Origin: a virus
Strand: one strand, 5' to 3'
DNA length: 45,900 nucleotides
Virus genome (UHGV): UHGV-1347344
The notes under the pieces: model-generated
Seen by the model: only the letters and a program-made list of their open reading frames with translations
Databases searched by the model: none
What the model was told of the DNA's origin: nothing
Translations under genes and position numbers: made by a program
Shown here: one piece after another, positions 6,566 through 44,691 of the stretch
How the letters are laid out: each line of letters starts with the position of its first letter
How positions within the stretch are numbered: position 1 is the first letter of the stretch

Positions 6566-8374
6566 TCAGTACCCGAATGCGCTGTCTACCTGCGCGGTTT
6601 GATTACGAAGTGCCGGAACCACTCCTTGGGCCATCCCTTCCGCATCCGTAGCCTGCGTATAGACCTTGACCTCACCCACATTGGTGGTTGACGTCATCTG
6701 ACGCGAATTATTGACGTTGCTCACGCTTCCCGGACGCGCATCCCCGGCGCGCACCTGCGGCGGCAGAATAGACGGGCGGACATCACCAACCCGCATCGAA
6801 TCGGCGACCCCGCCGGGCTTAGCCTCGGCCTTCGTTTCTTCCGGGCGCGAAGACTCATCGCCGCCGAGCCAATCCTTGATCCAGTCGTGAAGCAAATTGT
6901 AGAGCTTCTGGGCTACCCAGTTCAGCATTTCGACAAGCACATCATTGATTTTGGAGATGCCTCCCCAGATCGTTTTGAGGGCTTCGATAACGCCTTTTCC
7001 GTCCCGTGTAAGAACGGAGTTGAAGAGCTTGGCGACCCCCGAAAGGGCATCCCAGACGCCCCCGAGGATACTTTTGATGCCTTCCCAAATAGCCTTGAAA
7101 CGAGCCCCGATTTCATCGCCAGTTCCGAACATCGACCAGAGCCCGGAAAGTGCAGATTCTCCGCCTTTGATGTAGGTAATGAGATCGTCGACAACCAGCG
7201 CGATCGCGCCGATGCCCGCAATCAACGGCGTAAACGGCGCAATCGCAGCCCATGCCGCCGTCGCCATCGCGCTCAACGCCGGGAGCATGAGCGTCGTAAT
7301 GACCCCGGCTAACGCCGTAAAGAAGACGATCACGAACTGCTTGTTTTCTTTCACCCACCCGAGGAGATCGCCGAGCAGTTTCGTCAAAAACGTGATCGCA
7401 GGGGAGACGGTGCTGGCGAAAAGGGCTGAGATGGCCTCCCATGCGTCATTGAGCCGCTGCTGCGCCTCCCGTTGCTTCTTCGCGTTTTCGATGTCCTGCT
7501 TGCTGTAGATGGCTTGAGCCTTCTGGACTTTCAGAAGCTCCTCAATCCCTTTGCGGCCCTTGAGGATGAGCGGGATGGTTTTTTCGTCGAAGCCGATCTG
7601 CGTGAGGATCGAGGTCGCCTTCTGGCGGTCGATTTTTGACGTGGCGTCGGAAAGCCGAAGAAGCCCTTCTTCAAAGGAAACGGCCTTCCCTTTCGCATCC
7701 GTGAAGCTCACCCCCAGGTCTTTGGTCGCGTCCTTAAGCGGCCCGGAGTCGTGCAAAATGAGATCCTGCATCCAGTCGCCCAGATCCATAAACCGAGTCG
7801 AAAGTTCCTCGGCGTCAACCCCGGCGGCGGCTGCCGTCCGTTGCCATGCCTGCCAGTCTTCAATGCTCATGCCGAGCGCGTCCGAAGTCTTCTCGATAGC
7901 CTGAGCCTGCTCGTAATACTGCGCTACGGAGCTTTTCAGGATGGAGACGCCGCCGATGACGGCGAGGGCCTGCGCTGCCACGCTCTTGAGCCGTTCAAAG
8001 CCAAACGCGCCTTTGTCCGCCGCGTCTTCCAGCGAAACGCCCAGTTTTTTCGCTGCATCATCAAGGGCCTCAAGACGTTCTTTTGCCGCTCCGGTGCGGA
8101 TAAGCCCCTCGCGCATCCGCTGATACTCTTTCGTCACCTCGCTGATTTCGCGGCCTTTTTGCACGGCTTCCTCAAAGGCGGCTTGCAACGAAGATGCGGC
8201 ATCGGCAGACTGGTCAAGCCCTTGGGCCCCCTTGACGCCTGCGTCATATGTCGCGCGCCCCGCGTCAACGGCTGCGGCCTGCACGCCGTCCAGTCCTTTT
8301 TGGGCGTTCTGCACTTGAGCTTTGAAAGCCCCTGCGGAGAGGATGAGGGAAACGACGAGTTCACCTGCGTTCAT
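6566..8374 (-). CDS. tail tape measure protein
   Basis: 602 aa with long coiled-coil segments plus an Ala/Gly-rich hydrophobic core (FFTALAGVITTLMLPALSAMATAAWAAIAPFTPLIAGIGAIALVV). Follows the G/GT chaperone pair. Confidence 0.85.
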   Translation of the reverse strand: MNAGELVVSLILSAGAFKAQVQNAQKGLDGVQAAAVDAGRATYDAGVKGAQGLDQSADAASSLQAAFEEAVQKGREISEVTKEYQRMREGLIRTGAAKERLEALDDAAKKLGVSLEDAADKGAFGFERLKSVAAQALAVIGGVSILKSSVAQYYEQAQAIEKTSDALGMSIEDWQAWQRTAAAAGVDAEELSTRFMDLGDWMQDLILHDSGPLKDATKDLGVSFTDAKGKAVSFEEGLLRLSDATSKIDRQKATSILTQIGFDEKTIPLILKGRKGIEELLKVQKAQAIYSKQDIENAKKQREAQQRLNDAWEAISALFASTVSPAITFLTKLLGDLLGWVKENKQFVIVFFTALAGVITTLMLPALSAMATAAWAAIAPFTPLIAGIGAIALVVDDLITYIKGGESALSGLWSMFGTGDEIGARFKAIWEGIKSILGGVWDALSGVAKLFNSVLTRDGKGVIEALKTIWGGISKINDVLVEMLNWVAQKLYNLLHDWIKDWLGGDESSRPEETKAEAKPGGVADSMRVGDVRPSILPPQVRAGDARPGSVSNVNNSRQMTSTTNVGEVKVYTQATDAEGMAQGVVPALRNQTAQVDSAFGY

Positions 8375-17002: not shown

Positions 17003-17022
17003 TAAAGAAAGAATATCGTAGA

Positions 17023-17060
17023 AAAGGGGTGGCTTTAAGAGCCGCCCCTTTTTGTTTTTC
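17023..17060 (+). terminator. rho-independent terminator
   Basis: aaggggtggct-ttaa-gagccgcccctt stem followed by tttttgttttt. Confidence 0.7.
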
Positions 17061-17102
17061 TGCCTCTCCCTTCTGTTACTGACGAGTTAAAAAAGATAAA
17101 AC

Positions 17103-17147
17103 TTTTTTGAAAAAATTGTTTATTTTTTCAAAAAATGGTGCTATTGT
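17103..17147 (+). promoter_or_regulatory. cassette promoter: 33-bp palindrome (TTTTTTGAAAAAAT-tgttt-ATTTTTTCAAAAAA) plus extended -10 TGcTATTGT
   Basis: Perfect 14-bp inverted arms at 17103..17116 and 17122..17135. TGCTATTGT at 17139..17147. RBS AAAGGAGAG precedes the ATG at 17181. Confidence 0.55.
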
Positions 17148-17180: not shown

Positions 17181-17537
17181 ATGATAACCATCACCACAGC
17201 CAACAACGAAACAACTCTTGAAAACGACAAGGCTTTCTGTGCATATCGTATCGAAACAGAAATCGATTTTGATGAAGATGGTTATGAAGTGGACGGAGAG
17301 CAATATGTGCTCATCGAAAAGCTTTTTGTTCCCTCAGAAAATCGCGGAAACGGCATTGCCCGCCGCCTTCTTCGTGAAGCCGTCTCTCACGCTCGCGCTA
17401 CTTACCCCAGAATGGCGATTAGGTTGGTAGCTGAACCTCTGGATGCCGATACAGATATGGATCGGCTGGTGGCCTTTTATGAAAGCGAAGGTTTTGATGT
17501 GATCGAAGCTGGCGAAATCGTAGTCATGGAACACTAA
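17181..17537 (+). CDS. small GNAT-family N-acetyltransferase
   Basis: 118 aa with acetyl-CoA binding motif A (LFVPSENRGNGIARRLL). Confidence 0.6.
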   Translation: MITITTANNETTLENDKAFCAYRIETEIDFDEDGYEVDGEQYVLIEKLFVPSENRGNGIARRLLREAVSHARATYPRMAIRLVAEPLDADTDMDRLVAFYESEGFDVIEAGEIVVMEH

Positions 17538-17557
17538 ACAGAACAAAGGAGTAAGAC

Positions 17558-17728
17558 ATGACCCGCTATTCTATCCTGCTCACGACTGGCACAACGGGAA
17601 CCATCGATACCGAACAGCATCTTGAAGAGGGCATGGAAGTAGTCATTACCTTGCACGATGAAAACGGAAACAGAACGCAGGAAACCGGACTCATCGCTGA
17701 AATTCTTGACGAAGAATTTTTAGGGTAA
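17558..17728 (+). CDS. small hypothetical protein (56 aa)
   Basis: Strong RBS AAGGAGTAAGAC before ATG. Product MTRYSILLTTGTTGTIDTEQHLEEGMEVVITLHDENGNRTQETGLIAEILDEEFLG. Below the ORF-track size cutoff. Confidence 0.5.
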   Translation: MTRYSILLTTGTTGTIDTEQHLEEGMEVVITLHDENGNRTQETGLIAEILDEEFLG

Positions 17729-17750
17729 TCGAATTAAAAGGAAAAACACC

Positions 17751-18251
17751 ATGAAGCTATACCACGGAAGCATGATTGAACATCTGGCTATCTCTAACTC
17801 AGGAACAGGGTTAGGGTATAACTTCGGAGCGATGTTCTTTGCCCGTACTTACGGACATGCAAAGGAATACGGAAATTACGTCTACCAGTGCGAAATAGAC
17901 ATCAAGGACATCTTCTTGAACGAGGATCTCCCGTATCTTGAAGATGGCGCTGCTGGAACGGCTCTACGTGAAGTTATGGCAGAGCGCGGTATAGACGAAA
18001 AGTATTTTGATCTCTGCTGGTATGCCGTGGTTGAAGAGAAAATTGGTTATCAAGATGAAGACTGGGTAAACCTCCTCAACATGGACGACGATGACGCAAG
18101 TTGGGAGGCTCAGGCCATGCGGATCGCCTTTGCCCGTAAGCTTGGATTTAAAGCTGTGGAGATGGATGACGAATGCGGCAGCATTGCGGTTCTTCCCGAG
18201 TTCATAAAGCTGGAAGCGTCAACGGAGGAGGACGATGAAGAGGAAGACTAA
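17751..18251 (+). CDS. minimal PARP-like (H-Y-E class) ADP-ribosyltransferase domain protein with polyacidic C-terminus (putative)
   Basis: N-terminus KLYHGSMIEHLAISNSGTGLGYNFGAMFFARTYGHAKEYGNY parallels PARP catalytic LWHGSRTTNFAGILSQGL...[20 protein letters not shown] (H-G-S, then GYxFG..YFA, then Y). Candidate catalytic Glu in CWYAVVEEK. C-terminus STEEDDEEED. Confidence 0.45.
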   Translation: MKLYHGSMIEHLAISNSGTGLGYNFGAMFFARTYGHAKEYGNYVYQCEIDIKDIFLNEDLPYLEDGAAGTALREVMAERGIDEKYFDLCWYAVVEEKIGYQDEDWVNLLNMDDDDASWEAQAMRIAFARKLGFKAVEMDDECGSIAVLPEFIKLEASTEEDDEEED

Positions 18252-19626
18252 GATAGACATCGACGATCTTATCGATTTCAGTTCAAAGCTGGTGAACTCG
18301 AATTCCAGCATCGGTATTCGCTTGTCGTCGGGTGCCGCGCTCTCCCTTCCGTACCTGTCCACGAGGACATGTCTTGCGGCAGGGATTTCTATGCCGCTGG
18401 ATACGGCAAACGGGGCCAAGGATGTGGGAAAAGTAAGTGCTCTATACAAAACACTCGAAGAGGGGGAGGAAGGAGAGAAAGCAGATACAGAGGCGGCATT
18501 GAAGAAAATCCGTAAAACAGGATTTGCTAGAAAAACAGAGTCTGTCGACAGACGGATTCGTCAACTGCTCATTCCTAAAGACGTACCCTCTGGGTATGTC
18601 TCTTTGTCTCCCCTCCCCTCCATTGGACTTTCCGTTTTGCTGTTAGGAGCCGTTACAAGGCATAATCAAGATGTCTTTTCAAAAAAGAAGGAAGGTATCA
18701 AAATTCGACGGGCACATCTCGCTTTGGGCGGGGCAAACCCTCAGAATCTAGGATACGCTGCGTCCAAAAAGGCGATACAATATCCTATTTTTCTTTCTAC
18801 ACCCAAATCCGTGCGCGGAAATGCCAGCCGTCAGGCGTCAGGAAAGGGAACTTACCTGATCCTTTCCAATCTCTTTGTGCAAACGGCAAACATCTTGACG
18901 AATTATACTATGCTCAACGGCGCGCCCCTCTTTGCAGCATGGGGGATGGGACATGCACTGGAGCGCGAGATGCATGGTCCCAAGGTTACCGGAGTATGCC
19001 TTGTTGTGCATAGCATCGAACCCCTTGGGGAGCATGAAACCGCTATTTTCGAGCCTAGCCAAAGATTAGGAGCGGCTTTTACTTTTGAAAAATCCCGTAA
19101 CGGGAGCGACTACGCAAAAGGCTCCACACATCTCTCTTTGCAGCCCGGTGCAACGGGGCATATACGGGTAAGCCTTATCTTTGAACTGTCGGAAGCCCTG
19201 CATTCCGTACCGAACGCCGTGGATCTTTTCTTGAACTTCGGAAAGTTCTCCGGTGGGCTGATCACTTCATACGACGCCCCGGCTTTGCATGATGACCGCT
19301 CTACGCTTCTAGAGTGCATTCCCGCCGGGAAAGTTGTTTTGGATCGGCGCGACGTTATGAGTCCTGGAAACCCCATTGAACAGCTTGTAACCGCGATAGG
19401 AACGTACAGCGGAAAATGGCTGTCCGCAACGAATATCGGTTTTTCAGCAATCACAGACTTTCAAGTTCGCGGAGGGGCACGGAACGGACATCTTCATGCC
19501 TTTGCCGAGCCGCTGATCGGCATTACAGAATACGTCTCTACTGAAAAGAGGATACACGGGTATTTCTGGCGCAGCCAGTGGGAAGAAGATAGCTTTTTGA
19601 TGAGGGGAGATTCAACAAATGAATGA
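18235..19626 (+). CDS. 463-aa protein of unknown function (partner of the ART-like gene)
   Basis: Overlaps the upstream gene by 17 nt and the downstream gene by 8 nt (operonic). No P-loop, HEPN, nuclease or macro motif recognised by eye. Confidence 0.65.
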   Translation: MKRKTKIDIDDLIDFSSKLVNSNSSIGIRLSSGAALSLPYLSTRTCLAAGISMPLDTANGAKDVGKVSALYKTLEEGEEGEKADTEAALKKIRKTGFARKTESVDRRIRQLLIPKDVPSGYVSLSPLPSIGLSVLLLGAVTRHNQDVFSKKKEGIKIRRAHLALGGANPQNLGYAASKKAIQYPIFLSTPKSVRGNASRQASGKGTYLILSNLFVQTANILTNYTMLNGAPLFAAWGMGHALEREMHGPKVTGVCLVVHSIEPLGEHETAIFEPSQRLGAAFTFEKSRNGSDYAKGSTHLSLQPGATGHIRVSLIFELSEALHSVPNAVDLFLNFGKFSGGLITSYDAPALHDDRSTLLECIPAGKVVLDRRDVMSPGNPIEQLVTAIGTYSGKWLSATNIGFSAITDFQVRGGARNGHLHAFAEPLIGITEYVSTEKRIHGYFWRSQWEEDSFLMRGDSTNE

Positions 19627-19840
19627 TGCACAAGAAAAAAAGCAGGGTGGACGCCGTAAAGGATCTGGACGTAAAAAAAGGGTTGAAAATCGTGCAACAG
19701 TAAAGACTGTATCTATGCCGGATCATGTCTGGGAACGGCTGAACGATGTATGTACGGATAGGGGTATCCTACGCTCACAGGTAGTACGGGAAGCAGTCGA
19801 GATGTGGCTGGACGCAAATATACAGCAGCTTGGAAAATGA
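19619..19840 (+). CDS. ribbon-helix-helix (CopG/Arc-like) DNA-binding protein
   Basis: 73 aa with a basic N-terminus, beta-strand ATVKTVSMPDHVWERL then helices SQVVREAVEMWL. Last gene before the terminator. Confidence 0.6.
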   Translation: MNDAQEKKQGGRRKGSGRKKRVENRATVKTVSMPDHVWERLNDVCTDRGILRSQVVREAVEMWLDANIQQLGK

Positions 19841-19893: not shown

Positions 19894-19912
19894 CATGGAG
19901 GGAAGGATGGGA

Positions 19913-20926
19913 CTAGGCTCCAGTCATTTGCGCAAAGGCAAAGGGCATGAGCACGATACCGCCGTAGGTGGTGCCGACGAACTTCTGACGGAAGCTGGAC
20001 AGGTCGGGCACGACGCGTCCGGCACGCATCTTTTCTCCGAAGGCCAGCGTGCCGGATCGCTGCCCGTTCACTTCGGGGGCGATGAGGAACATGTTTTCCC
20101 CGGCGGTCATGCTGTGCAGCTCGGGGACGGTCACGATGTCAATGCGGGTGAAGTACCGCTTCAACATATCCAGCACGGACACGTTGAAATCGGTAGCCGC
20201 GCCGAGGCGAACGGCCAGTTCGGGGGAGAGGCAGAGCTTGAGGGGCGTGTCTTTGTCAATGAGGCCGCTGGACTGCTCGGAAAGCTGCGCGAACAGGATG
20301 AGGACGTCATTGTAGATCTGCACCGTGGTCTTGTCGGCCCATTTCGTGGAGCCGCCCGTGCCCGTGGCCCCTGCGGTGATCGCAGCAGGGAGGTTCGGAT
20401 CGTTAAGGATGCCGTAGATTTCCTTCCCGGCGACTCCGCGCAGGTAGAAACGGTTCTGGTCGATGTCGATGACGTTGGCGGCCGCACGCTGCTTGGAGGC
20501 AGCGAGGTTGACTTTTGCCGTGCTCGACATGTCCACTTCAAAGTCGCCGTAGGTGATGGACGTCTGGAAGACGTACTGCACGCGGGTTTGCCATTCGGAG
20601 TTCACGCCCGAAGTCGTGCCGTTGGCATAGTCGGAATACGGCTCGGTCTTTCCGGTCATTTCGTCCACGCGCCACTTCATGTACGGGGTCGTCCAATCGC
20701 CCTTCTTCTCTTCACCGAAGATTTCACGGGCGCGCCGGGGCGCGGTCAGGATTTCGATGACCATCGGGTCGATATACGCCAGAAGCTCGGCGGGGACGGT
20801 CGTGTTCGGAGTAGTGATGAGCGCGGCGTCCTGCGCAATGCGGGCGCGGTTCTCCGGAGTTGCCCACATGCGGGCGCCCGGGAAGATAAAGCCGTAGCGC
20901 TTGGCCTGTTCAAAAGTCGGATTCAT
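19913..20926 (-). CDS. major capsid protein
   Basis: 337 aa, downstream of the scaffold/protease and decoration genes; lambda E-like size. Confidence 0.7.
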   Translation of the reverse strand: MNPTFEQAKRYGFIFPGARMWATPENRARIAQDAALITTPNTTVPAELLAYIDPMVIEILTAPRRAREIFGEEKKGDWTTPYMKWRVDEMTGKTEPYSDYANGTTSGVNSEWQTRVQYVFQTSITYGDFEVDMSSTAKVNLAASKQRAAANVIDIDQNRFYLRGVAGKEIYGILNDPNLPAAITAGATGTGGSTKWADKTTVQIYNDVLILFAQLSEQSSGLIDKDTPLKLCLSPELAVRLGAATDFNVSVLDMLKRYFTRIDIVTVPELHSMTAGENMFLIAPEVNGQRSGTLAFGEKMRAGRVVPDLSSFRQKFVGTTYGGIVLMPFAFAQMTGA

Positions 20927-20936
20927 GTAGTACCTC

Positions 20937-21575
20937 CTACGCTCCGGCGGCGGCTGCGCCGAGGTTGGTGCGGGCCTGTTCCGCAGTGGTTGCGCCAGTT
21001 CCGCCGTTGGCCACGCCGAGCGCTCCGGTGGCGTTGCTGAAATCTTTCTGCATCAGGTTCGAGGTGTCGCCGCCGGATCCCGACGCTGCGGCCTGTCCCC
21101 AATTGCTGATGATGATCGGTTCCCCGATTTCGCCGGGCGTCTTGACGACCCACCCCGTATCGAGGTGCGTGGCGTCGGGGGTCCCGGTGCTGATTGAACC
21201 GTCAGCGGTGGAGGCAAGGACGGCCTGCCCCACCGTGGCCTTGGTCGTGGAAACGGCCCAATAGTCGCCCTTCACAGCCACGGTGAGGTTCGAGCCTGCC
21301 GGGACAGTCAGGGTGCCGTCAGAAAGCAGTTCATAGTTCACGTAGTTGATGACGCGCTCCACGAAGCCGAGCACGGCTGTGGCGGTGCCCGCGACGTTGG
21401 TGGCCCGCGTGTTGTCGATCACGCCGGAATCCACGACAGGGAAGACGAAGCGCCCCACAGGGAGGGCCACCGCCGCCAGAGGGTTGAGCGGGGTGTAGAT
21501 GCTCTGGTCGGGCGTCGCTTTATCGCCCGCAACGCCGGGAGCGACGGAAAGATTGACTTGGGACTGCAAAGGCAT
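20937..21575 (-). CDS. head decoration / head fibre protein, start refined
   Basis: ATG at 21575 preceded by AGGAGG. C-terminus GALGVANGGTGATTAEQARTNLGAAAAGA is a fibre-type motif. Sits between the scaffold and capsid genes. Confidence 0.5.
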   Translation of the reverse strand: MPLQSQVNLSVAPGVAGDKATPDQSIYTPLNPLAAVALPVGRFVFPVVDSGVIDNTRATNVAGTATAVLGFVERVINYVNYELLSDGTLTVPAGSNLTVAVKGDYWAVSTTKATVGQAVLASTADGSISTGTPDATHLDTGWVVKTPGEIGEPIIISNWGQAAASGSGGDTSNLMQKDFSNATGALGVANGGTGATTAEQARTNLGAAAAGA

Positions 21576-21585
21576 GGTGTGCCTC

Positions 21586-23513
<1,928 letters not shown>

Positions 23514-25982: not shown

Positions 25983-26729
25983 ATGTACAAAAGCATCATG
26001 GTGTTTTTGCTGGCCGCGCTAGTTATGACGTCCGAGGCGCAGGCCGCGGGCAACGAATGGAACGATTCGTTCAGCAAGGCCAAAAAAACGTTGGAGCGAC
26101 AAATCTATCATGACCACCGGATCACGCTCTACTGCGGGGCGGCGTTCGACGAGAAGAAGAACGTCACCCTCCCGGAGGGTTTTACTGCCGCGAAGCACGA
26201 GAAGCGGGCCGGGAAGGTGGAATGGGAACACGTGGTCCCCGCCGAGAACTTCGGGCAGGCGTTCGCGGAGTGGCGCGAGGGCGACGCGCAGTGCGTGGAC
26301 AACAGGGGAAAGGCGTTCAAAGGCCGCAAGTGTGCCGAGAAGGTCAATAAAGACTATCGGTACATGCAGGCGGACATGTACAACCTGTATCCGGCCATCG
26401 GCGCGGTGAATGCCCTACGCCAGAACTACAACTTTCAGATGTTGCCGGGCGAGGAGCCGGACTTCGGAAGCTGCGGGATGAAGATCGCCGACCGCAGGGC
26501 CGAGCCGCCTATCAGAGCGAGGGGACAGATTGCCCGGACCTACAAGTATATGGCCGACGCCTATGCCCCGCGCTACCGCATGAGCCGCCAGCAGACGCAG
26601 CTCATGGACGCATGGGACAAGATGTATCCGGTTGATGCGTGGGAATGCACGCGGGCCAGACGTATTGAAAGACTACAAGGTAACGAGAACCCTTTTGTGA
26701 AGGAAAGATGTCAAGAAGCAGGACTCTAA
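25983..26729 (+). CDS. endA: secreted endonuclease I (EndA/Dns/Vvn family periplasmic-extracellular DNase)
   Basis: Signal peptide MYKSIMVFLLAALVMTSEAQA followed by the Endonuclease_1 pattern (…YHDHRITLYCGAAF…WEHVVPAENFG…DMYNLYPAIGAVNALR…). Opposite strand to the flanking packaging genes. Confidence 0.75.
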   Translation: MYKSIMVFLLAALVMTSEAQAAGNEWNDSFSKAKKTLERQIYHDHRITLYCGAAFDEKKNVTLPEGFTAAKHEKRAGKVEWEHVVPAENFGQAFAEWREGDAQCVDNRGKAFKGRKCAEKVNKDYRYMQADMYNLYPAIGAVNALRQNYNFQMLPGEEPDFGSCGMKIADRRAEPPIRARGQIARTYKYMADAYAPRYRMSRQQTQLMDAWDKMYPVDAWECTRARRIERLQGNENPFVKERCQEAGL

Positions 26730-28213: not shown

Positions 28214-28598
28214 TCTCTTTAAAAGCCTCCCGCGTCAGCTTAAGCAATTCATCGGAGGAAAGATGGGAAAGATCAAGTGCTGGTGCAGGCGACATCGTTC
28301 TATCAGAACTGGAAAGATCAATTTTTTGAATCTCTCGCCATCCCATACGAGTCTTTGCCCAGAAAATAAGAGCGGTTGTGTCACCCGACATAGCTTTGTC
28401 GAAGAGCCGCTTTCCAACTTTCACATTAGCGTTGGTTCTTCCTGTGATAAGCTCCTGCTTATAGAGCTTCACCATCGTATCAACAGACATACCAATCTTT
28501 GCTGCGATTTCATCTTGCGGTACTCCGTATTGAGCCATTGCCTCAACAAGCGCCGCCTTTGTTCCAGATCTTTTTATCGCAGGTCTACCACCGCTCAT
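28194..28598 (-). CDS. terminase small subunit (HTH)
   Basis: 134 aa overlapping terL by 20 nt. HTH-like AAKIGMSVDTMVKLYKQ. Confidence 0.6.
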   Translation of the reverse strand: MSGGRPAIKRSGTKAALVEAMAQYGVPQDEIAAKIGMSVDTMVKLYKQELITGRTNANVKVGKRLFDKAMSGDTTALIFWAKTRMGWREIQKIDLSSSDRTMSPAPALDLSHLSSDELLKLTREAFKENERNDG

Positions 28599-29542
28599 AG
28601 AACGCCTCCGAGCAGGTTGATGTAGTACGGAATCGTTAGTTCAAGCCCCTCATCCAAGCTCGTTGTCGGCTTGAATCCCAAAAGAGCGGACGCTTTTCCA
28701 ATATCAGGAACGCGCCGCGTGGGGTCGTCGTCAGGAATGGGCCGGAATACGATTTTTGATGACGACCTGACTTTTTCGATTATAGTCTTGGCAAGCTCCA
28801 AGATCGTGATTTCTTCGGGGTTTCCAATATTTACCGGACCCGTGATATGACTATCCGACTCCATCAGCCGGACAATCCCTGATATCGTATCGCGCACAAA
28901 ACAAAACGAGCGTGTCTGAGAACCATCCCCGTATACGGTTATATCCTCACCCCGCAAGGCTTGGCAGATGAAGTTAGGAATAACCCGACCATCGTTTATC
29001 GACATCATGGGGCCGTAGGTGTTGAACAGACGCACAACCTTAACCTTGATCCCCTCTTCCCGGTAAAAGTCGAAGAAGAGACTTTCTGCGCAGCGTTTCC
29101 CCTCATCGTAGCAGGCTCGGATGCCGATGGGGTTGACGTTGCCTCTATCAGTCTCTCGCTGAGGCGAAACTAGTGGCTCGCCATATACTTCTGATGTGGA
29201 TGCCTGCAAAACCGTCGCACCATGTACCTTGGCAAGCTCCAGTATATTCAATGCCCCAAGTACGCAGGTCTTTGTAGTCTGAATTGCATTTTTGCCCTGA
29301 TAGTTTAAAGGGCTTGCTGGACATGCGAGATTGTAAATTTCGTCTATATGCTCAGAAGCCTCAAAAGGAGAACAAATATCATGAAGAAAGAACTGAAAGT
29401 TTTTGAGCCGATTGGGGATATTATTAATATTTCCGGTTGAAAGATCGTCTATGCAGATAACCTTGTGTCCTTTTTTAAGCAATTCCCTGCAAAGATGTGC
29501 TCCTAAAAATCCGGCACCACCTGTTACGAGACTTGTTTTCAT
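28595..29542 (-). CDS. uxs: UDP-glucuronate decarboxylase (UDP-xylose synthase family SDR)
   Basis: MKTSLVTGGAGFLGAHLC…NYQGKNAIQTTKTCVLGALNILELAKVHGATVLQASTSEVYG…NPIGIRACYDEGKRCAESLFFDF…VRLFNTYGP closely parallels UXS/ArnA-C (GxxGxxG, YxxxK). Low GC. Confidence 0.85.
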   Translation of the reverse strand: MKTSLVTGGAGFLGAHLCRELLKKGHKVICIDDLSTGNINNIPNRLKNFQFFLHDICSPFEASEHIDEIYNLACPASPLNYQGKNAIQTTKTCVLGALNILELAKVHGATVLQASTSEVYGEPLVSPQRETDRGNVNPIGIRACYDEGKRCAESLFFDFYREEGIKVKVVRLFNTYGPMMSINDGRVIPNFICQALRGEDITVYGDGSQTRSFCFVRDTISGIVRLMESDSHITGPVNIGNPEEITILELAKTIIEKVRSSSKIVFRPIPDDDPTRRVPDIGKASALLGFKPTTSLDEGLELTIPYYINLLGGVL

Positions 29543-30408
29543 GAATCCGCCTTTTGGTATCGAGGGGAAAGGATTTTGGGCGTGCAGTGATTCCAAGAGA
29601 TTTTATGGTGGTATCGCATATACGTATCTTTGAGCGTCGATATTTTCACAGCAGATGGGCACATCATGACAGTATAAAAACTTTTCATATATGTACCATT
29701 TTCAAGATACATATCGGTCAGCCCACCAGCTTGAGATTGTGTCTCAGCTTGATTGATGCACGTATTCCCGAACGAGAAAAACAGCTTGCCCCGATGCCCC
29801 AGAGTGACATACGTGTTAACGTCATCATTCATACGTCCAACGAACTTGAAAGGGCGTAATGTCTTGCAAAAAAACGCGTTCATGGCTTTTCGTTTCACAG
29901 CCAATTTGGGGGAATCAATAGCCCCACCAATGAAATCGCCATTCTGCATAAAGCAGACGCTTAAAGATGGAGTTCTTTCTAAAAAATCTAGATAGGCATC
30001 GAAGACATCATCGAGGCATTGTGGGTATACATATTTCAAGACGCCATCTTTTGCATATCTGTGCTGGAACGAGTCATAATCATCGTCAAGTTCTAAGAAA
30101 AAATCGAGTCCCAAGCCCTCGGCTATTTTGTGACACATATTTCTAGCAAAAAGGACCGTATTTTTCTTCTGGATATTATCACCACGATCAGTAAATCGTG
30201 CTGCATCTTCCTTACAAAAGCGGATCACTTCTTTACCATACCGACGAATATATTCATCACCTGTCGTATCTTCATCATCAATAATGAGGTAAATGGGGCC
30301 TGTATATCCATGCTTTCGGAGTGAACGATATGTTTGCTGATTCTGAGGGCGTCCATACGTAAGTATAAAGCAAGCAAATTTTTCATGCCTCATCGTTCTT
30401 ATCCTCAC
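29539..30408 (-). CDS. putative glycosyltransferase (DxD-type)
   Basis: 289 aa with FILTYGRP and LELDDDYD motifs. 4-bp overlap with the uxs-like gene; AT-rich. Confidence 0.45.
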   Translation of the reverse strand: MRIRTMRHEKFACFILTYGRPQNQQTYRSLRKHGYTGPIYLIIDDEDTTGDEYIRRYGKEVIRFCKEDAARFTDRGDNIQKKNTVLFARNMCHKIAEGLGLDFFLELDDDYDSFQHRYAKDGVLKYVYPQCLDDVFDAYLDFLERTPSLSVCFMQNGDFIGGAIDSPKLAVKRKAMNAFFCKTLRPFKFVGRMNDDVNTYVTLGHRGKLFFSFGNTCINQAETQSQAGGLTDMYLENGTYMKSFYTVMMCPSAVKISTLKDTYMRYHHKISWNHCTPKILSPRYQKADS

Positions 30409-33730: not shown

Positions 33731-34152
33731 TGCTCCATCCCCAACGCCCGGAGATGGGCAAGCTGTTTGTTCAAGGGCATATCCGGCATACCGTGCCTTC
33801 TGACGTCCATCTTCTCCCGCAGGTTTGAGAGAATCTTCGCGCACCATTCTGCGCCTTCTTCGCAACGCTCATCGAACGTCAAAGCATTTTCCGGCAAGGC
33901 TTCGCGGTTCACGGCTGGCGTCAGTTTCCGGGCCTCTTCCACCTGCCGCATCACGTCGGCAGGAACGGGGAAGAACCGCAGGACGGCCTGCGTCCGACGC
34001 ATCCCCTCGCGGAACTCCGCATCGCTCACGTCAGCCAACACGTCGCCCCAAGTCCTGACCAGCAACTCGAATTCCGCCTGCGCGGGCCTCGGCTGCCGAT
34101 AGAGCACAAACGCCTTGCTGAGTTCCAGAGCCAAAAGCTGCAAACTCGCCAT
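33727..34152 (-). CDS. hypothetical replication-module protein; start uncertain
   Basis: The 141-aa track ORF overlaps the O-like gene by 122 nt. GTG at 34029 or ATG at 34002 would be non-overlapping alternatives. Confidence 0.4.
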   Translation of the reverse strand: MASLQLLALELSKAFVLYRQPRPAQAEFELLVRTWGDVLADVSDAEFREGMRRTQAVLRFFPVPADVMRQVEEARKLTPAVNREALPENALTFDERCEEGAEWCAKILSNLREKMDVRRHGMPDMPLNKQLAHLRALGMEQ

Positions 34153-35002
34153 TTCTGTATACCTCGTCGAGTTTCAAAACCTGTTCCGCAAAATCGCCGC
34201 GTTCCGCCGCTTCCACCTGCCTCGCCGTCATAGGGGCGGCTCGCTGCTGGATAGGGCTCGACCTGCTGGCGTTGTTCTGCGCCCGGTCAAGCCATGAGTT
34301 CAGGAACCGCCGTACCCCAGTTTTTGTTTTCCGCTTCCGGGGATTGCTCAGGCACCACGCCCTGACCTGTGCAAGCTCACCAGCCACGTCTACCCCCGGA
34401 TAAGCTGCAGCGTACTCGCTGGCCAAAGATGCGGGGACCGGAAACTCGGAACCGTCAGCAAGCGGGATCATGGCTACAGACTGTTCCTGCTCACCTTCCG
34501 GTTCCGGCGCCGAGGATGCGCCAGCATCGCTCTGCGCAAGATCTGTCTTTCTCTCTTCTTTCTTACTTTCTTTCTTTATATCTTTCTTGTTTGTGGCCCT
34601 CTGCTGGCCCTCTGCTGGCCCTCTGCTGGCCTCTTGCTGGACCTCCTGCTGGCCTTTCTGTTGGCCTTCCGCTGGCCTTTCATCTTGGTATCTATGCCAA
34701 TTTAAAAAAGAAACTACTGTACATCTGTTGGTCGATCTGCTGGACACAATTTCGAGTTTTTTGAGCAGTTCAAAAGCTGTTCTTACCTGCTTTTCACTCA
34801 ACCCCAGATCAGAGGCTGCCTTAGCTCGTCCAAAGATGACTTCCCCCGGCTCAAGATCAAAGACCATGCCCGCAACGATTTGACGATGGTGACGGTATGT
34901 AGTCTTGAGCAACAGGTAGCCAAAGAGCTGCCACGCGGGGCCGTTTTGGAGCAGCCCGCTATCTAGGCATTTCCGCCAGAGCTTGACATATCCTTGTTCC
35001 AT
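34031..35002 (-). CDS. replication initiator (lambda O / DnaD-like winged-helix N-terminal domain) containing the origin iterons
   Basis: N-terminus YVKLWRKCLDSGLLQNGPAWQLFGYLLLKT…. The central low-complexity part is encoded by tandem 11-12 bp repeats. RBS GGAGACAA. Confidence 0.55.
   Translation of the reverse strand: MEQGYVKLWRKCLDSGLLQNGPAWQLFGYLLLKTTYRHHRQIVAGMVFDLEPGEVIFGRAKAASDLGLSEKQVRTAFELLKKLEIVSSRSTNRCTVVSFLNWHRYQDERPAEGQQKGQQEVQQEASRGPAEGQQRATNKKDIKKESKKEERKTDLAQSDAGASSAPEPEGEQEQSVAMIPLADGSEFPVPASLASEYAAAYPGVDVAGELAQVRAWCLSNPRKRKTKTGVRRFLNSWLDRAQNNASRSSPIQQRAAPMTARQVEAAERGDFAEQVLKLDEVYRNGEFAAFGSGTQQGVCALSAAEARAGGIRVAGQDLGRRVG
34595..34681. repeat. iteron array: about 7-8 tandem copies of GGCCCTCTGCT-like 11-12-mer, flanked by AT-rich stretches; candidate ori
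   Basis: Three perfect ggccctctgct copies then ggcctcttgct, ggacctcctgct, ggcctttctgtt, ggccttccgct. AT-rich 34550..34593 and 34690..34775. Confidence 0.6.
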
Positions 35003-43436: not shown

Positions 43437-43649
43437 ATGGAAACGACAATCTCGGAAATCCGCTCAATCGTACAGCGGCGTCGGGAGTTGGAGATTGAAG
43501 ACCAACGTCTCTACCAACGGTTTCTCGAACTGCTCGAACTCAACCAAGGGACTAGAAAATCTTCCCGCGATAGGCTATCCCCAGAATCAGGGAAGGCGCT
43601 TTTTGCTGGCTTGAAGAGAGGTTCTCATGAGCGTAGCAAAGCGCGGTGA
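43437..43649 (+). CDS. hypothetical protein (possibly excisionase-position gene)
   Basis: 70 aa directly upstream of int, overlapping it. RBS GGGAGGATAAG. Confidence 0.4.
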   Translation: METTISEIRSIVQRRRELEIEDQRLYQRFLELLELNQGTRKSSRDRLSPESGKALFAGLKRGSHERSKAR

Positions 43650-44691
43650 CGGCAGATTTGTCGTCAAGTTCAAAGATGAAGAAGGGCGCTGGAAACAGCG
43701 CTCTTTCCGTACTGATGAAGAGGCCCGGCAGTTCGATGCGGATTGCCAATATGATAAGGTGGAAAACACGCGCCTGACGCTGTTGGAGGCGGTGCTGGTG
43801 TACTTAAAGAACACTGAGTACGCCGAAAAAACCATAGCAACGTACGAGTTTTTGGTCTGTGGCCATGACAGGCAAAACGGCTATCACCGGGAAGGTCCAG
43901 CGGAGTTTATTGCCGACCGTTTTGTTGACACATTGACACGTCGTGACCTCGAAAATGTGCGCGAGAGGTGCAGGAATGATGGCCTGACTATGACAAGCAT
44001 CAACTCCTACGTTTCAAAACTCAAGGCCGCAATCAATTGGTGCGTCGAACAGGATTTGCTCCACGAGAATCCTTGGGGGAAATATCGGCAACTCCCAGGC
44101 GCAAAAAACAAGCCACGGACGGGAACGCTGGAAGACTTCCACAAACTCTTTCCTGTGCTCCCGCCGTGGCTTCAATGGGCAGCCCAAACCGCCATTGCCC
44201 TATGTCTGCGTCCCGGCATATCCGAACTTTTCCGTCTCGAATGGTCGGCATTCGACTGGAAGGCTAGAACTGTGTGCGTTTACATGCCGAAAGTTTGTAC
44301 TACAAAACTTGTATTCCCGCCAGAGGCATATCTTGCCGAAGCGTGGCTACGGTTCAAGTCAGACATGGCAGCTGGAAAAACCCTCGTTTGCCGTGGGAGA
44401 AAAGGCACGGCAGTGACCTCCTCCATGTACCACAAGTCATGGGATAGGGCATGTAAAAAAATCGGCGTACTTATGCCTATGTACGCGTTACGGCATATTG
44501 CTGCTTCCGAAATGCTGGCAAATGGGGTGGACATCGCAGCAGTGGCCGCGCAACTTGGGCACAAGAACATCACCACAACAGGGGCATTCTACACTCATGC
44601 GCTGGCATCATCCCAACGGCGTGCAGCTACATGCCTCCCTGATTGCACCAACTTGGTGCGGAATGGTGCAGAAAAACAATTACATAATTAA
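43627..44691 (+). CDS. int: tyrosine integrase/recombinase
   Basis: 354 aa with a C-terminal catalytic region (…ALRHIAASEMLANGVDIAAVAAQLGHKNITTTGAFYTHAL, R…H-x-x-R…Y). Last gene of the rightward early operon. Confidence 0.85.
   Translation: MSVAKRGDGRFVVKFKDEEGRWKQRSFRTDEEARQFDADCQYDKVENTRLTLLEAVLVYLKNTEYAEKTIATYEFLVCGHDRQNGYHREGPAEFIADRFVDTLTRRDLENVRERCRNDGLTMTSINSYVSKLKAAINWCVEQDLLHENPWGKYRQLPGAKNKPRTGTLEDFHKLFPVLPPWLQWAAQTAIALCLRPGISELFRLEWSAFDWKARTVCVYMPKVCTTKLVFPPEAYLAEAWLRFKSDMAAGKTLVCRGRKGTAVTSSMYHKSWDRACKKIGVLMPMYALRHIAASEMLANGVDIAAVAAQLGHKNITTTGAFYTHALASSQRRAATCLPDCTNLVRNGAEKQLHN

Follow-up and report, generated by a model that had tools for sequence, protein, structure and literature searches.

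A predicted AcrIF11-family ADP-ribosyltransferase gene beside an orphan Cas8f-Cas5f fusion in a Bilophila prophage operon

The viral genome UHGV-1347344 (45,900 nt, analysed at full length and called the window here) carries a 166-residue gene, 17751..18251 on the + strand, that very probably encodes an AcrIF11-family anti-CRISPR enzyme of a temperate Bilophila phage. The reading is built on the family membership of the protein, its fold, the conservation of its catalytic residues, the prophage operon that holds the gene and the type I-F target system of the host species, each observed in this analysis. The initial annotation, made from the letters alone, took the product for a small PARP-like ADP-ribosyltransferase (ART) with a polyacidic C-terminal tail, and proposed profile searches against ART families and structure prediction as checks.

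Family, fold and catalytic residues of the 166-residue protein

The open reading frame (ORF) starts with ATG, stops with TAA and has an AAGGA ribosome-binding site 5′ of the start. Its translation, which contains KLYHGS...GYNFGAMFFARTYGHAKEYGNY, WYAVVEEK and the C-terminal EASTEEDDEEED, is identical to the sequence quoted in the initial annotation. A word-indexed search returned 32 homologues at 49-97% identity, with a Bilophila wadsworthia 'hypothetical protein' at the top. A profile made from 98 family members matched 878 of 1.84 billion cluster representatives at E<=1e-3, of which 102 reached E<=1e-30. The ratio of nonsynonymous to synonymous substitution (dN/dS; Nei-Gojobori, homologous loci) is 0.11 with a 97% identical copy and 0.21 with a 73% identical copy. 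The ORF is a real gene and no chance reading frame, because it has homologues, family profile matches and dN/dS values in this range.

The protein matches NCBIfam NF052490, the equivalog model 'AcrIF11 family anti-CRISPR ADP-ribosyltransferase', with a score of 108 bits (cutoff 50; E 7.4e-31). The match spans residues 1-146 of the protein and positions 1-140 of the 142 in the profile. Pfam PF26151 (AcrIF11_ADP_ribosyl) is the precomputed label on homologues, including the 97%-identical P0001. A sequence search of the PDB found 8DWQ (E 3.4e-6), which is AcrIF11Pae2 (PMC12421852), and AcrIF11Pae1 as 6KYF (E 7.6e-4). In the Pfam scan ART-PolyVal (PF18760) stayed below threshold, at 18.4 bits against a gathering cutoff of 31.2 (E 0.0039, residues 1-83 only), and the PHROGs match is an unannotated family. 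The PARP catalytic profile (Pfam PF00644) did not match at E<=1, and tblastn against 50,697 GenBank phage records gave no match at E<=1e-5. No literature was found that treats Bilophila and anti-CRISPR together. By its sequence the gene belongs to an anti-CRISPR family that is already described and curated, and it is no new kind of enzyme. Every defining feature of the AcrIF11 family that can be examined computationally is present in the protein, with its activity assigned by homology.

An AlphaFold model made from the 20 close homologues only was discarded (predicted local distance difference test, pLDDT, 57.6; beta-core unfolded). The family was then widened by seeding the homologue search with parts of both AcrIF11 sequences in the PDB, and the resulting 98-sequence alignment gave a model with pLDDT 85.9 and a predicted template modelling score (pTM) of 0.83. 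Core strands are predicted at residues 2-7, 28-31, 43-48, 135-140 and 143-147, so that the ART beta-core is made of residues 1-48 and 135-147, with a helical insert at 57-130. Foldseek found 6KYF as the sole match in the PDB, and ART domains of polyvalent proteins among viral models. The model can be superposed on the solved AcrIF11 structures and has the split beta-sheet NAD-binding core of ARTs. The protein is an ART of the H-Y-E (diphtheria-toxin-like, ARTD) clade, with AcrIF11 as its nearest kin and ART-PolyVal next.

Only H5, G132, D140, E141 and G143 are invariant among the 98 family members, while Y45, S7, W118 and Q121 reach at least 90% conservation. HMMER and MAFFT alignments place H5 at Pae2 H20, S7/E10 at Pae2 S22/E25, and D140/E141 at Pae2 D146/E147 and Pae1 D115/E116. 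According to Chen et al. 2025 (PMC12421852), each of the changes H20A/Y46A and D146A/E147A of Pae2 and D115A of Pae1 abolishes ADP-ribosylation of Cas8f as well as protection of the phage. The alignments thus point to the D140/E141 pair as the catalytic acid, because it is invariant and lies at residues whose mutation abolishes AcrIF11 activity. The pair begins the D140-E141-C142-G143 loop between the last two beta-strands (18168..18179, +). The predicted NAD-binding histidine of the H-Y-E signature lies in the H5-G6-S7 motif (17763..17771, +), and the aromatic segment Y34...Y45 (17850..17885, +) would supply the second and third positions of H-Y-Y-E. In the alignments Pae2 Y46 falls at H36, which is two positions away from Y34.

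The initial annotation had thus seen a genuine homology in the N-terminal resemblance to ART motifs, and both H5 and Y45, which it had named among its candidate residues, stand. So does its small phage-borne ART of the H-Y-E clade, for which the NF052490 match, the invariant H5, D140 and E141, and the predicted fold all speak; the profile search and the structure prediction both came out in its favour. Its PARP-like label needs correction: the protein is closer to the diphtheria-toxin/ART-PolyVal branch than to PARP.

The AcrIF11-type ART domain also occurs, at E<=1e-30, inside giant proteins of 1,200-3,500 residues (P0196, P0294, P0286, P0283) that are presumably polyvalent or ejected. The stand-alone anti-CRISPR may derive from domains of polyvalent proteins, or may be their source.

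The prophage operon, its probable type I-F target and rival explanations

The window is a prophage, with an integrase gene (43627-44691) and genes for RecT, a PDDEXK protein, portal, Mu F-like, capsid and terminase proteins and an E217-like tail. The acr operon (17181-19840, +) forms a + strand island between the - strand tail and head modules. Its order is a GNAT acetyltransferase, a 56-residue protein, AcrIF11, a Cas8f-Cas5f fusion (18235..19626) and a ribbon-helix-helix (RHH) protein. It is encoded on a prophage and ends in an RHH gene, a candidate anti-CRISPR-associated (Aca) gene, as is looked for in an acr locus.

Type I-F loci were found across the Desulfovibrionaceae when one genome per species was scanned. 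The locus of B. wadsworthia ATCC 49260 (L012, 1946-10404 and 13424-13572) is complete, with cas genes and two arrays of the 28-nt repeat GTTATCCGCCGTGTAGGCGGTTTAGAAG. NCBIfam confirmed its Cas2-3 (753 bits), Cas5f, Cas7f (241 bits) and Cas6f, and its Cas1 ORF was assigned from its place in the locus and from a Lawsonia locus (L005) whose analogous gene matches Pfam Cas_Cas1. Cas8f was assigned by position to a 420-residue protein that matches no NCBIfam model, and is therefore a divergent Cas8f missed by current models. Its motif GGSNPQN aligns with GGTKPQN (K247-N250) of strain PA14. At species level (ATCC 49260), the host lineage thus possesses a type I-F system, and the acceptor asparagine is present in its Cas8f.

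Desulfovibrionaceae type I-F loci yielded 402 spacers, and one of them, from an uncultured Bilophila sp. (L008, position 13848), matches the window at 27 of 32 positions. This protospacer-like site has a 5′-CC protospacer-adjacent motif (PAM) and lies at 7788..7819 (+), inside a minor-tail/tape-measure-like gene (6566-8374, -). The second-best spacer matches at 23/32. The match, with its CC PAM, therefore indicates that phages of this group are under type I-F pressure.

From the characterised homologues, a course of action can be proposed. The enzyme would bind NAD+ in a diphtheria-toxin-like ART pocket made of H5, the aromatic positions Y34/H36 and Y45, and the D140/E141 loop. It would then transfer one ADP-ribose to the PAM-reading asparagine of Cas8f, and only in the assembled type I-F Csy complex. 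In Pseudomonas the acceptor is N250, and in Bilophila it would be the last N of GGSNPQN. Once modified, the complex would no longer bind target DNA, and the phage or prophage would thereby escape CRISPR targeting. Being catalytic, the enzyme would act sub-stoichiometrically. Mono-ADP-ribosylation of the Cas8f asparagine and the block of DNA binding are taken from the characterised homologues (PMC12421852, PMC13131331). Enzymatic activity and the acceptor residue in Bilophila we infer on this basis; any role of the tail is likewise an inference.

Several points weigh against this reading. Identity to the two characterised AcrIF11 proteins is 27-29%, and function is transferred by homology. The occurrence of the same ART domain inside giant polyvalent phage proteins means that the fold alone leaves the substrate unfixed. 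The alignment of the Cas8f motif to PA14 comes from a weak whole-protein profile match (E 0.04-0.06), with the motif itself exact. The host type I-F evidence comes from the species representative and not from this prophage's own host strain. Finally, the equivalent of Pae2 Y46 is ambiguous by at most two residues, being either Y34 or H36.

An ART fold could serve other ends. The enzyme might be a toxin or host-takeover ART in the manner of T4 Alt/Mod or ART-PolyVal, or an NAD+ degrader resembling RES toxins, with no relation to CRISPR. We consider this unlikely, as the ART-PolyVal score falls short of its cutoff whereas the AcrIF11 model is passed two-fold, and the gene stands alone at a size typical of the family, with Cas-derived and RHH genes as neighbours, while its prophage belongs to a species with type I-F. 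In vivo, moreover, Cas8f is the only target that characterised members modify. The version of the initial annotation, a PARP-like enzyme with E95 or E96 of WYAVVEEK as catalytic glutamate, is highly improbable. E96 is invariant among the 20 close homologues, but the pair sits at the end of helix 83-94 within the helical insert of the AlphaFold model, lacks family-wide conservation, and falls in what is the most variable part of the AcrIF11 family (PMC12421852).

It is also conceivable, though very unlikely, that AcrIF11 and the fusion form one obligate two-part device, in which the fusion recruits or presents the enzyme or is its true substrate. The two genes overlap by 17 nt, and a Shine-Dalgarno-like run, GGAGGAGGA (18224-18232), read from the sequence inside the tail codons of the acr gene, precedes the ATG of the fusion at 18235 (18224..18237 together, +), which suggests translational coupling. 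The fusion also has an acceptor-type motif, GGANPQN, whose N171 is invariant in 7/7 viral fusions. Against such a device, the order is fusion, RHH gene, AcrIF11 in L082 and L084, so that the RHH gene stands between the two; L083 has the fusion and the GNAT gene without AcrIF11; and L079-L081 have AcrIF11 and an RHH gene without the fusion. Modules that shuffle in this way among phages are characteristic of an anti-defence island of independent acr genes, and AcrIF11 of Pseudomonas works alone. An AcrIF11-family anti-CRISPR enzyme is the reading we keep.

The acidic tail, the fusion and the remaining genes

The polyacidic tail EASTEEDDEEED (18213..18248, +) is specific to the Bilophila-phage clade. 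Residues 147-166 fall outside the NF052490 model, and the final block is predicted to be disordered (pLDDT ~47). Nine of the last 12 residues are D or E, which bears out the tail described in the initial annotation. All 18 clade members, including P0028 and P0030 at 51-57% identity, have 7-9 D/E in these 12 positions; the other 80 of the 98 family members have 1-5. The AcrIF11 family is strongly acidic overall, with net charges of -15 to -35.

The initial annotation had considered it a possible DNA mimic or autoinhibitory element. The purine-rich DNA of the gene overlap encodes DDEEED in the acr frame and MKRKTK in that of the fusion. That the tail is a mere by-product of the overlapping start and Shine-Dalgarno run was rejected as its sole cause. 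The tail is retained in L082 (as PEDDEDNE), where the acr gene is last in the operon, and in L079, a phage with a different downstream gene and no fusion; the tail is therefore selected for itself. Tentatively, and with somewhat more doubt than confidence, we propose that it is a disordered, DNA-like appendage that would help the enzyme to dock on the Csy complex, at the lysine-rich surface where DNA binds. The idea is supported by the position of acidic AcrIF11 residues near Cas7f K58/K60 (Chen et al., PMC12421852).

The fusion (463 residues, 18235..19626, +) joins the N-terminal domain of Cas8f to Cas5f, and is a more novel lead than the 166-residue gene. PADLOC matched Cas8f over residues 10-193 (E 1.3e-20) and Cas5f over residues 208-453 (E 1.8e-21); the NCBI annotation is 'Csy2'. 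Compared with the B. wadsworthia subunits, the fusion shows 35% identity to Cas8f residues 41-252 and 40% to full-length Cas5f. It lacks the C-terminal ~170 residues of Cas8f, which in Pseudomonas structures form the helical bundle that recruits Cas2/3. The PAM-loop motif is retained, and N171 corresponds to PA14 N250, the AcrIF11 acceptor. PDB searches with single sequences, whether of the fusion or of a Desulfovibrionaceae Cas8f, were uninformative, and PA14 Csy1 was reached only with a 6-sequence profile. The gene is under purifying selection (dN/dS 0.12). A CRISPR array and other cas genes were sought within the window and none were found, so the fusion is an orphan rather than a component of a phage-encoded CRISPR-Cas system.

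These features make the fusion a candidate Cas-derived anti-CRISPR, by analogy with AcrIB3 and AcrIB4, the Cas-derived anti-CRISPRs known for type I-B (bioRxiv 10.1101/2023.06.24.545427). A 2026 review (PMC13131331) lists none for type I-F. It is tempting to see in the operon at 17181-19840 a multi-pronged type I-F anti-CRISPR arsenal, with the fusion as a new type of inhibitor, a single-chain 'poison subunit', AcrIF11, and perhaps an AcrVA5-like GNAT protein, although we give this somewhat less than an even chance. The fusion would replace host Cas8f and Cas5f at the 5′ handle of the CRISPR RNA, and Csy complexes that hold it could not trigger DNA degradation, because it lacks the region of Cas8f that recruits Cas2/3. 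AcrIF11, whose clade-specific acidic tail would mimic DNA, would inactivate complexes that are already assembled.

The operon opens with the GNAT acetyltransferase gene (118 residues, 17181..17537, +), whose product passes the Pfam cutoffs for Acetyltransf_7, _1 and _10. It accompanies the cassette in L001-L004 and L083. A gene for a 56-residue acidic protein (17558..17728, +) always follows it; the two are always paired at the head of the operon, and in L083 they are paired in a locus without AcrIF11. Both are possible further inhibitors, and the GNAT protein recalls the acetyltransferase anti-CRISPR AcrVA5. The whole cassette also occurs in a different phage backbone (L003).

The last gene encodes the RHH protein (73 residues, 19619..19840, +), which has a basic N-terminal arm and weak matches to Pfam RHH_1 and RHH_3. 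Similar small RHH genes accompany an acr gene in L079 (1488-1676), L082 (7480-7650), L083 and L003 (2562-2732). These small proteins are candidate Aca-type repressors of the RHH class. RHH proteins with a basic Gly/Arg/Lys-rich N-terminal arm were observed at every AcrIF11 or fusion locus of the Bilophila-phage clade, and in L083 the same RHH domain forms the C-terminus of a 220-residue protein with helix-turn-helix repeats.

At its 5′ boundary (17021..17136, +) the operon has a terminator followed by an AT-rich, promoter-like region, both predicted at consensus level only. The terminator (17021-17053) is strong, with a 15-bp stem. Two 13-nt palindromes, TTTTTTGAAAAAA (17103) and TTTTTTCAAAAAA (17123), lie 20 nt apart in the promoter-like region and are kept in L001, L002 and L004. 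Their role as operators is unsupported, as they are not conserved 5′ of the cassette in other phage backbones. The + strand ORFs at 19895-21040, 21499-22740 and 22747-23259 were considered as cas7 or cas6 and rejected; they have no family matches and run antisense to capsid and head genes.

Elsewhere in the window, a gene of the GDP-mannose 4,6-dehydratase/NAD-dependent epimerase family (28595-29596, -; Pfam E 1e-49) adjoins the terminase region and may be a moron that modifies surface polysaccharide. Between the portal and terminase genes, an Endonuclease I family gene (25983-26729, +; Pfam E 3e-29) is isolated on the + strand. The 11-nt sequence TGGCCCTCTGC is repeated in tandem 7.5 times (34594-34678) beside a (TCTT)12 tract (34542-34588), both of them inside an ORF without a family match (34031-35002, -). 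The repeats are a possible slippage-prone or phase-variable site.

Significance and comparison with known systems

The 166-residue gene extends an enzymatic anti-CRISPR family to phages of Bilophila wadsworthia, a gut sulfidogen of clinical relevance, and its value in this respect is modest. How AcrIF11 enzymes recognise the Csy complex has been stated as an open question (PMC12421852), which this divergent variant, with its acidic tail and what looks like a canonical H-Y-Y-E signature, could help to answer. The locus matters more as bait for guilt by association, with the fusion, the GNAT gene and the 56-residue gene as the candidates. If confirmed, the fusion would give type I-F its first Cas-derived anti-CRISPR.

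The window protein differs in several ways from AcrIF11Pae1 (6KYF) and AcrIF11Pae2 (8DWQ), the P. aeruginosa mono-ADP-ribosyltransferases to which it is 27-29% identical. It has Tyr at position 45 where Pae1, described as H-F-H-D, has His, and by sequence it looks nearer to the canonical H-Y-Y-E signature than Pae1 does. It has a 20-residue extension ending in the polyacidic tail, which both Pseudomonas proteins lack. Its host is a gut bacterium of the Desulfovibrionaceae rather than a gammaproteobacterium, and its gene neighbours are an RHH gene and the Cas8f-Cas5f fusion. The structural relationship to ART-PolyVal is clear, with a score below the gathering cutoff of that family (18.4 vs 31.2). 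ART-PolyVal domains, however, are embedded in multi-domain proteins injected by phages and conjugative elements, with targets not known, whereas the window protein stands alone. Like diphtheria toxin, exotoxin A and PARP domains, it has a split beta-sheet NAD core in which an N-terminal His on the first strand is followed by aromatics on the next strands and, near the C-terminal strands, by an acidic catalytic residue.

The fusion finds its closest parallels in AcrIB3 (a Cas5 homologue) and AcrIB4 (a homologue of the Cas8b C-terminus) of Listeria, which are also orphan viral cas homologues in an anti-CRISPR locus. Like them, it is about 35-40% identical to the host subunit and would be expected to join the effector complex as a defective subunit. 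Unlike them, it belongs to type I-F rather than I-B, and it combines in one chain the N-terminal domain of Cas8f and a whole Cas5f, with the Cas8f C-terminal region omitted.
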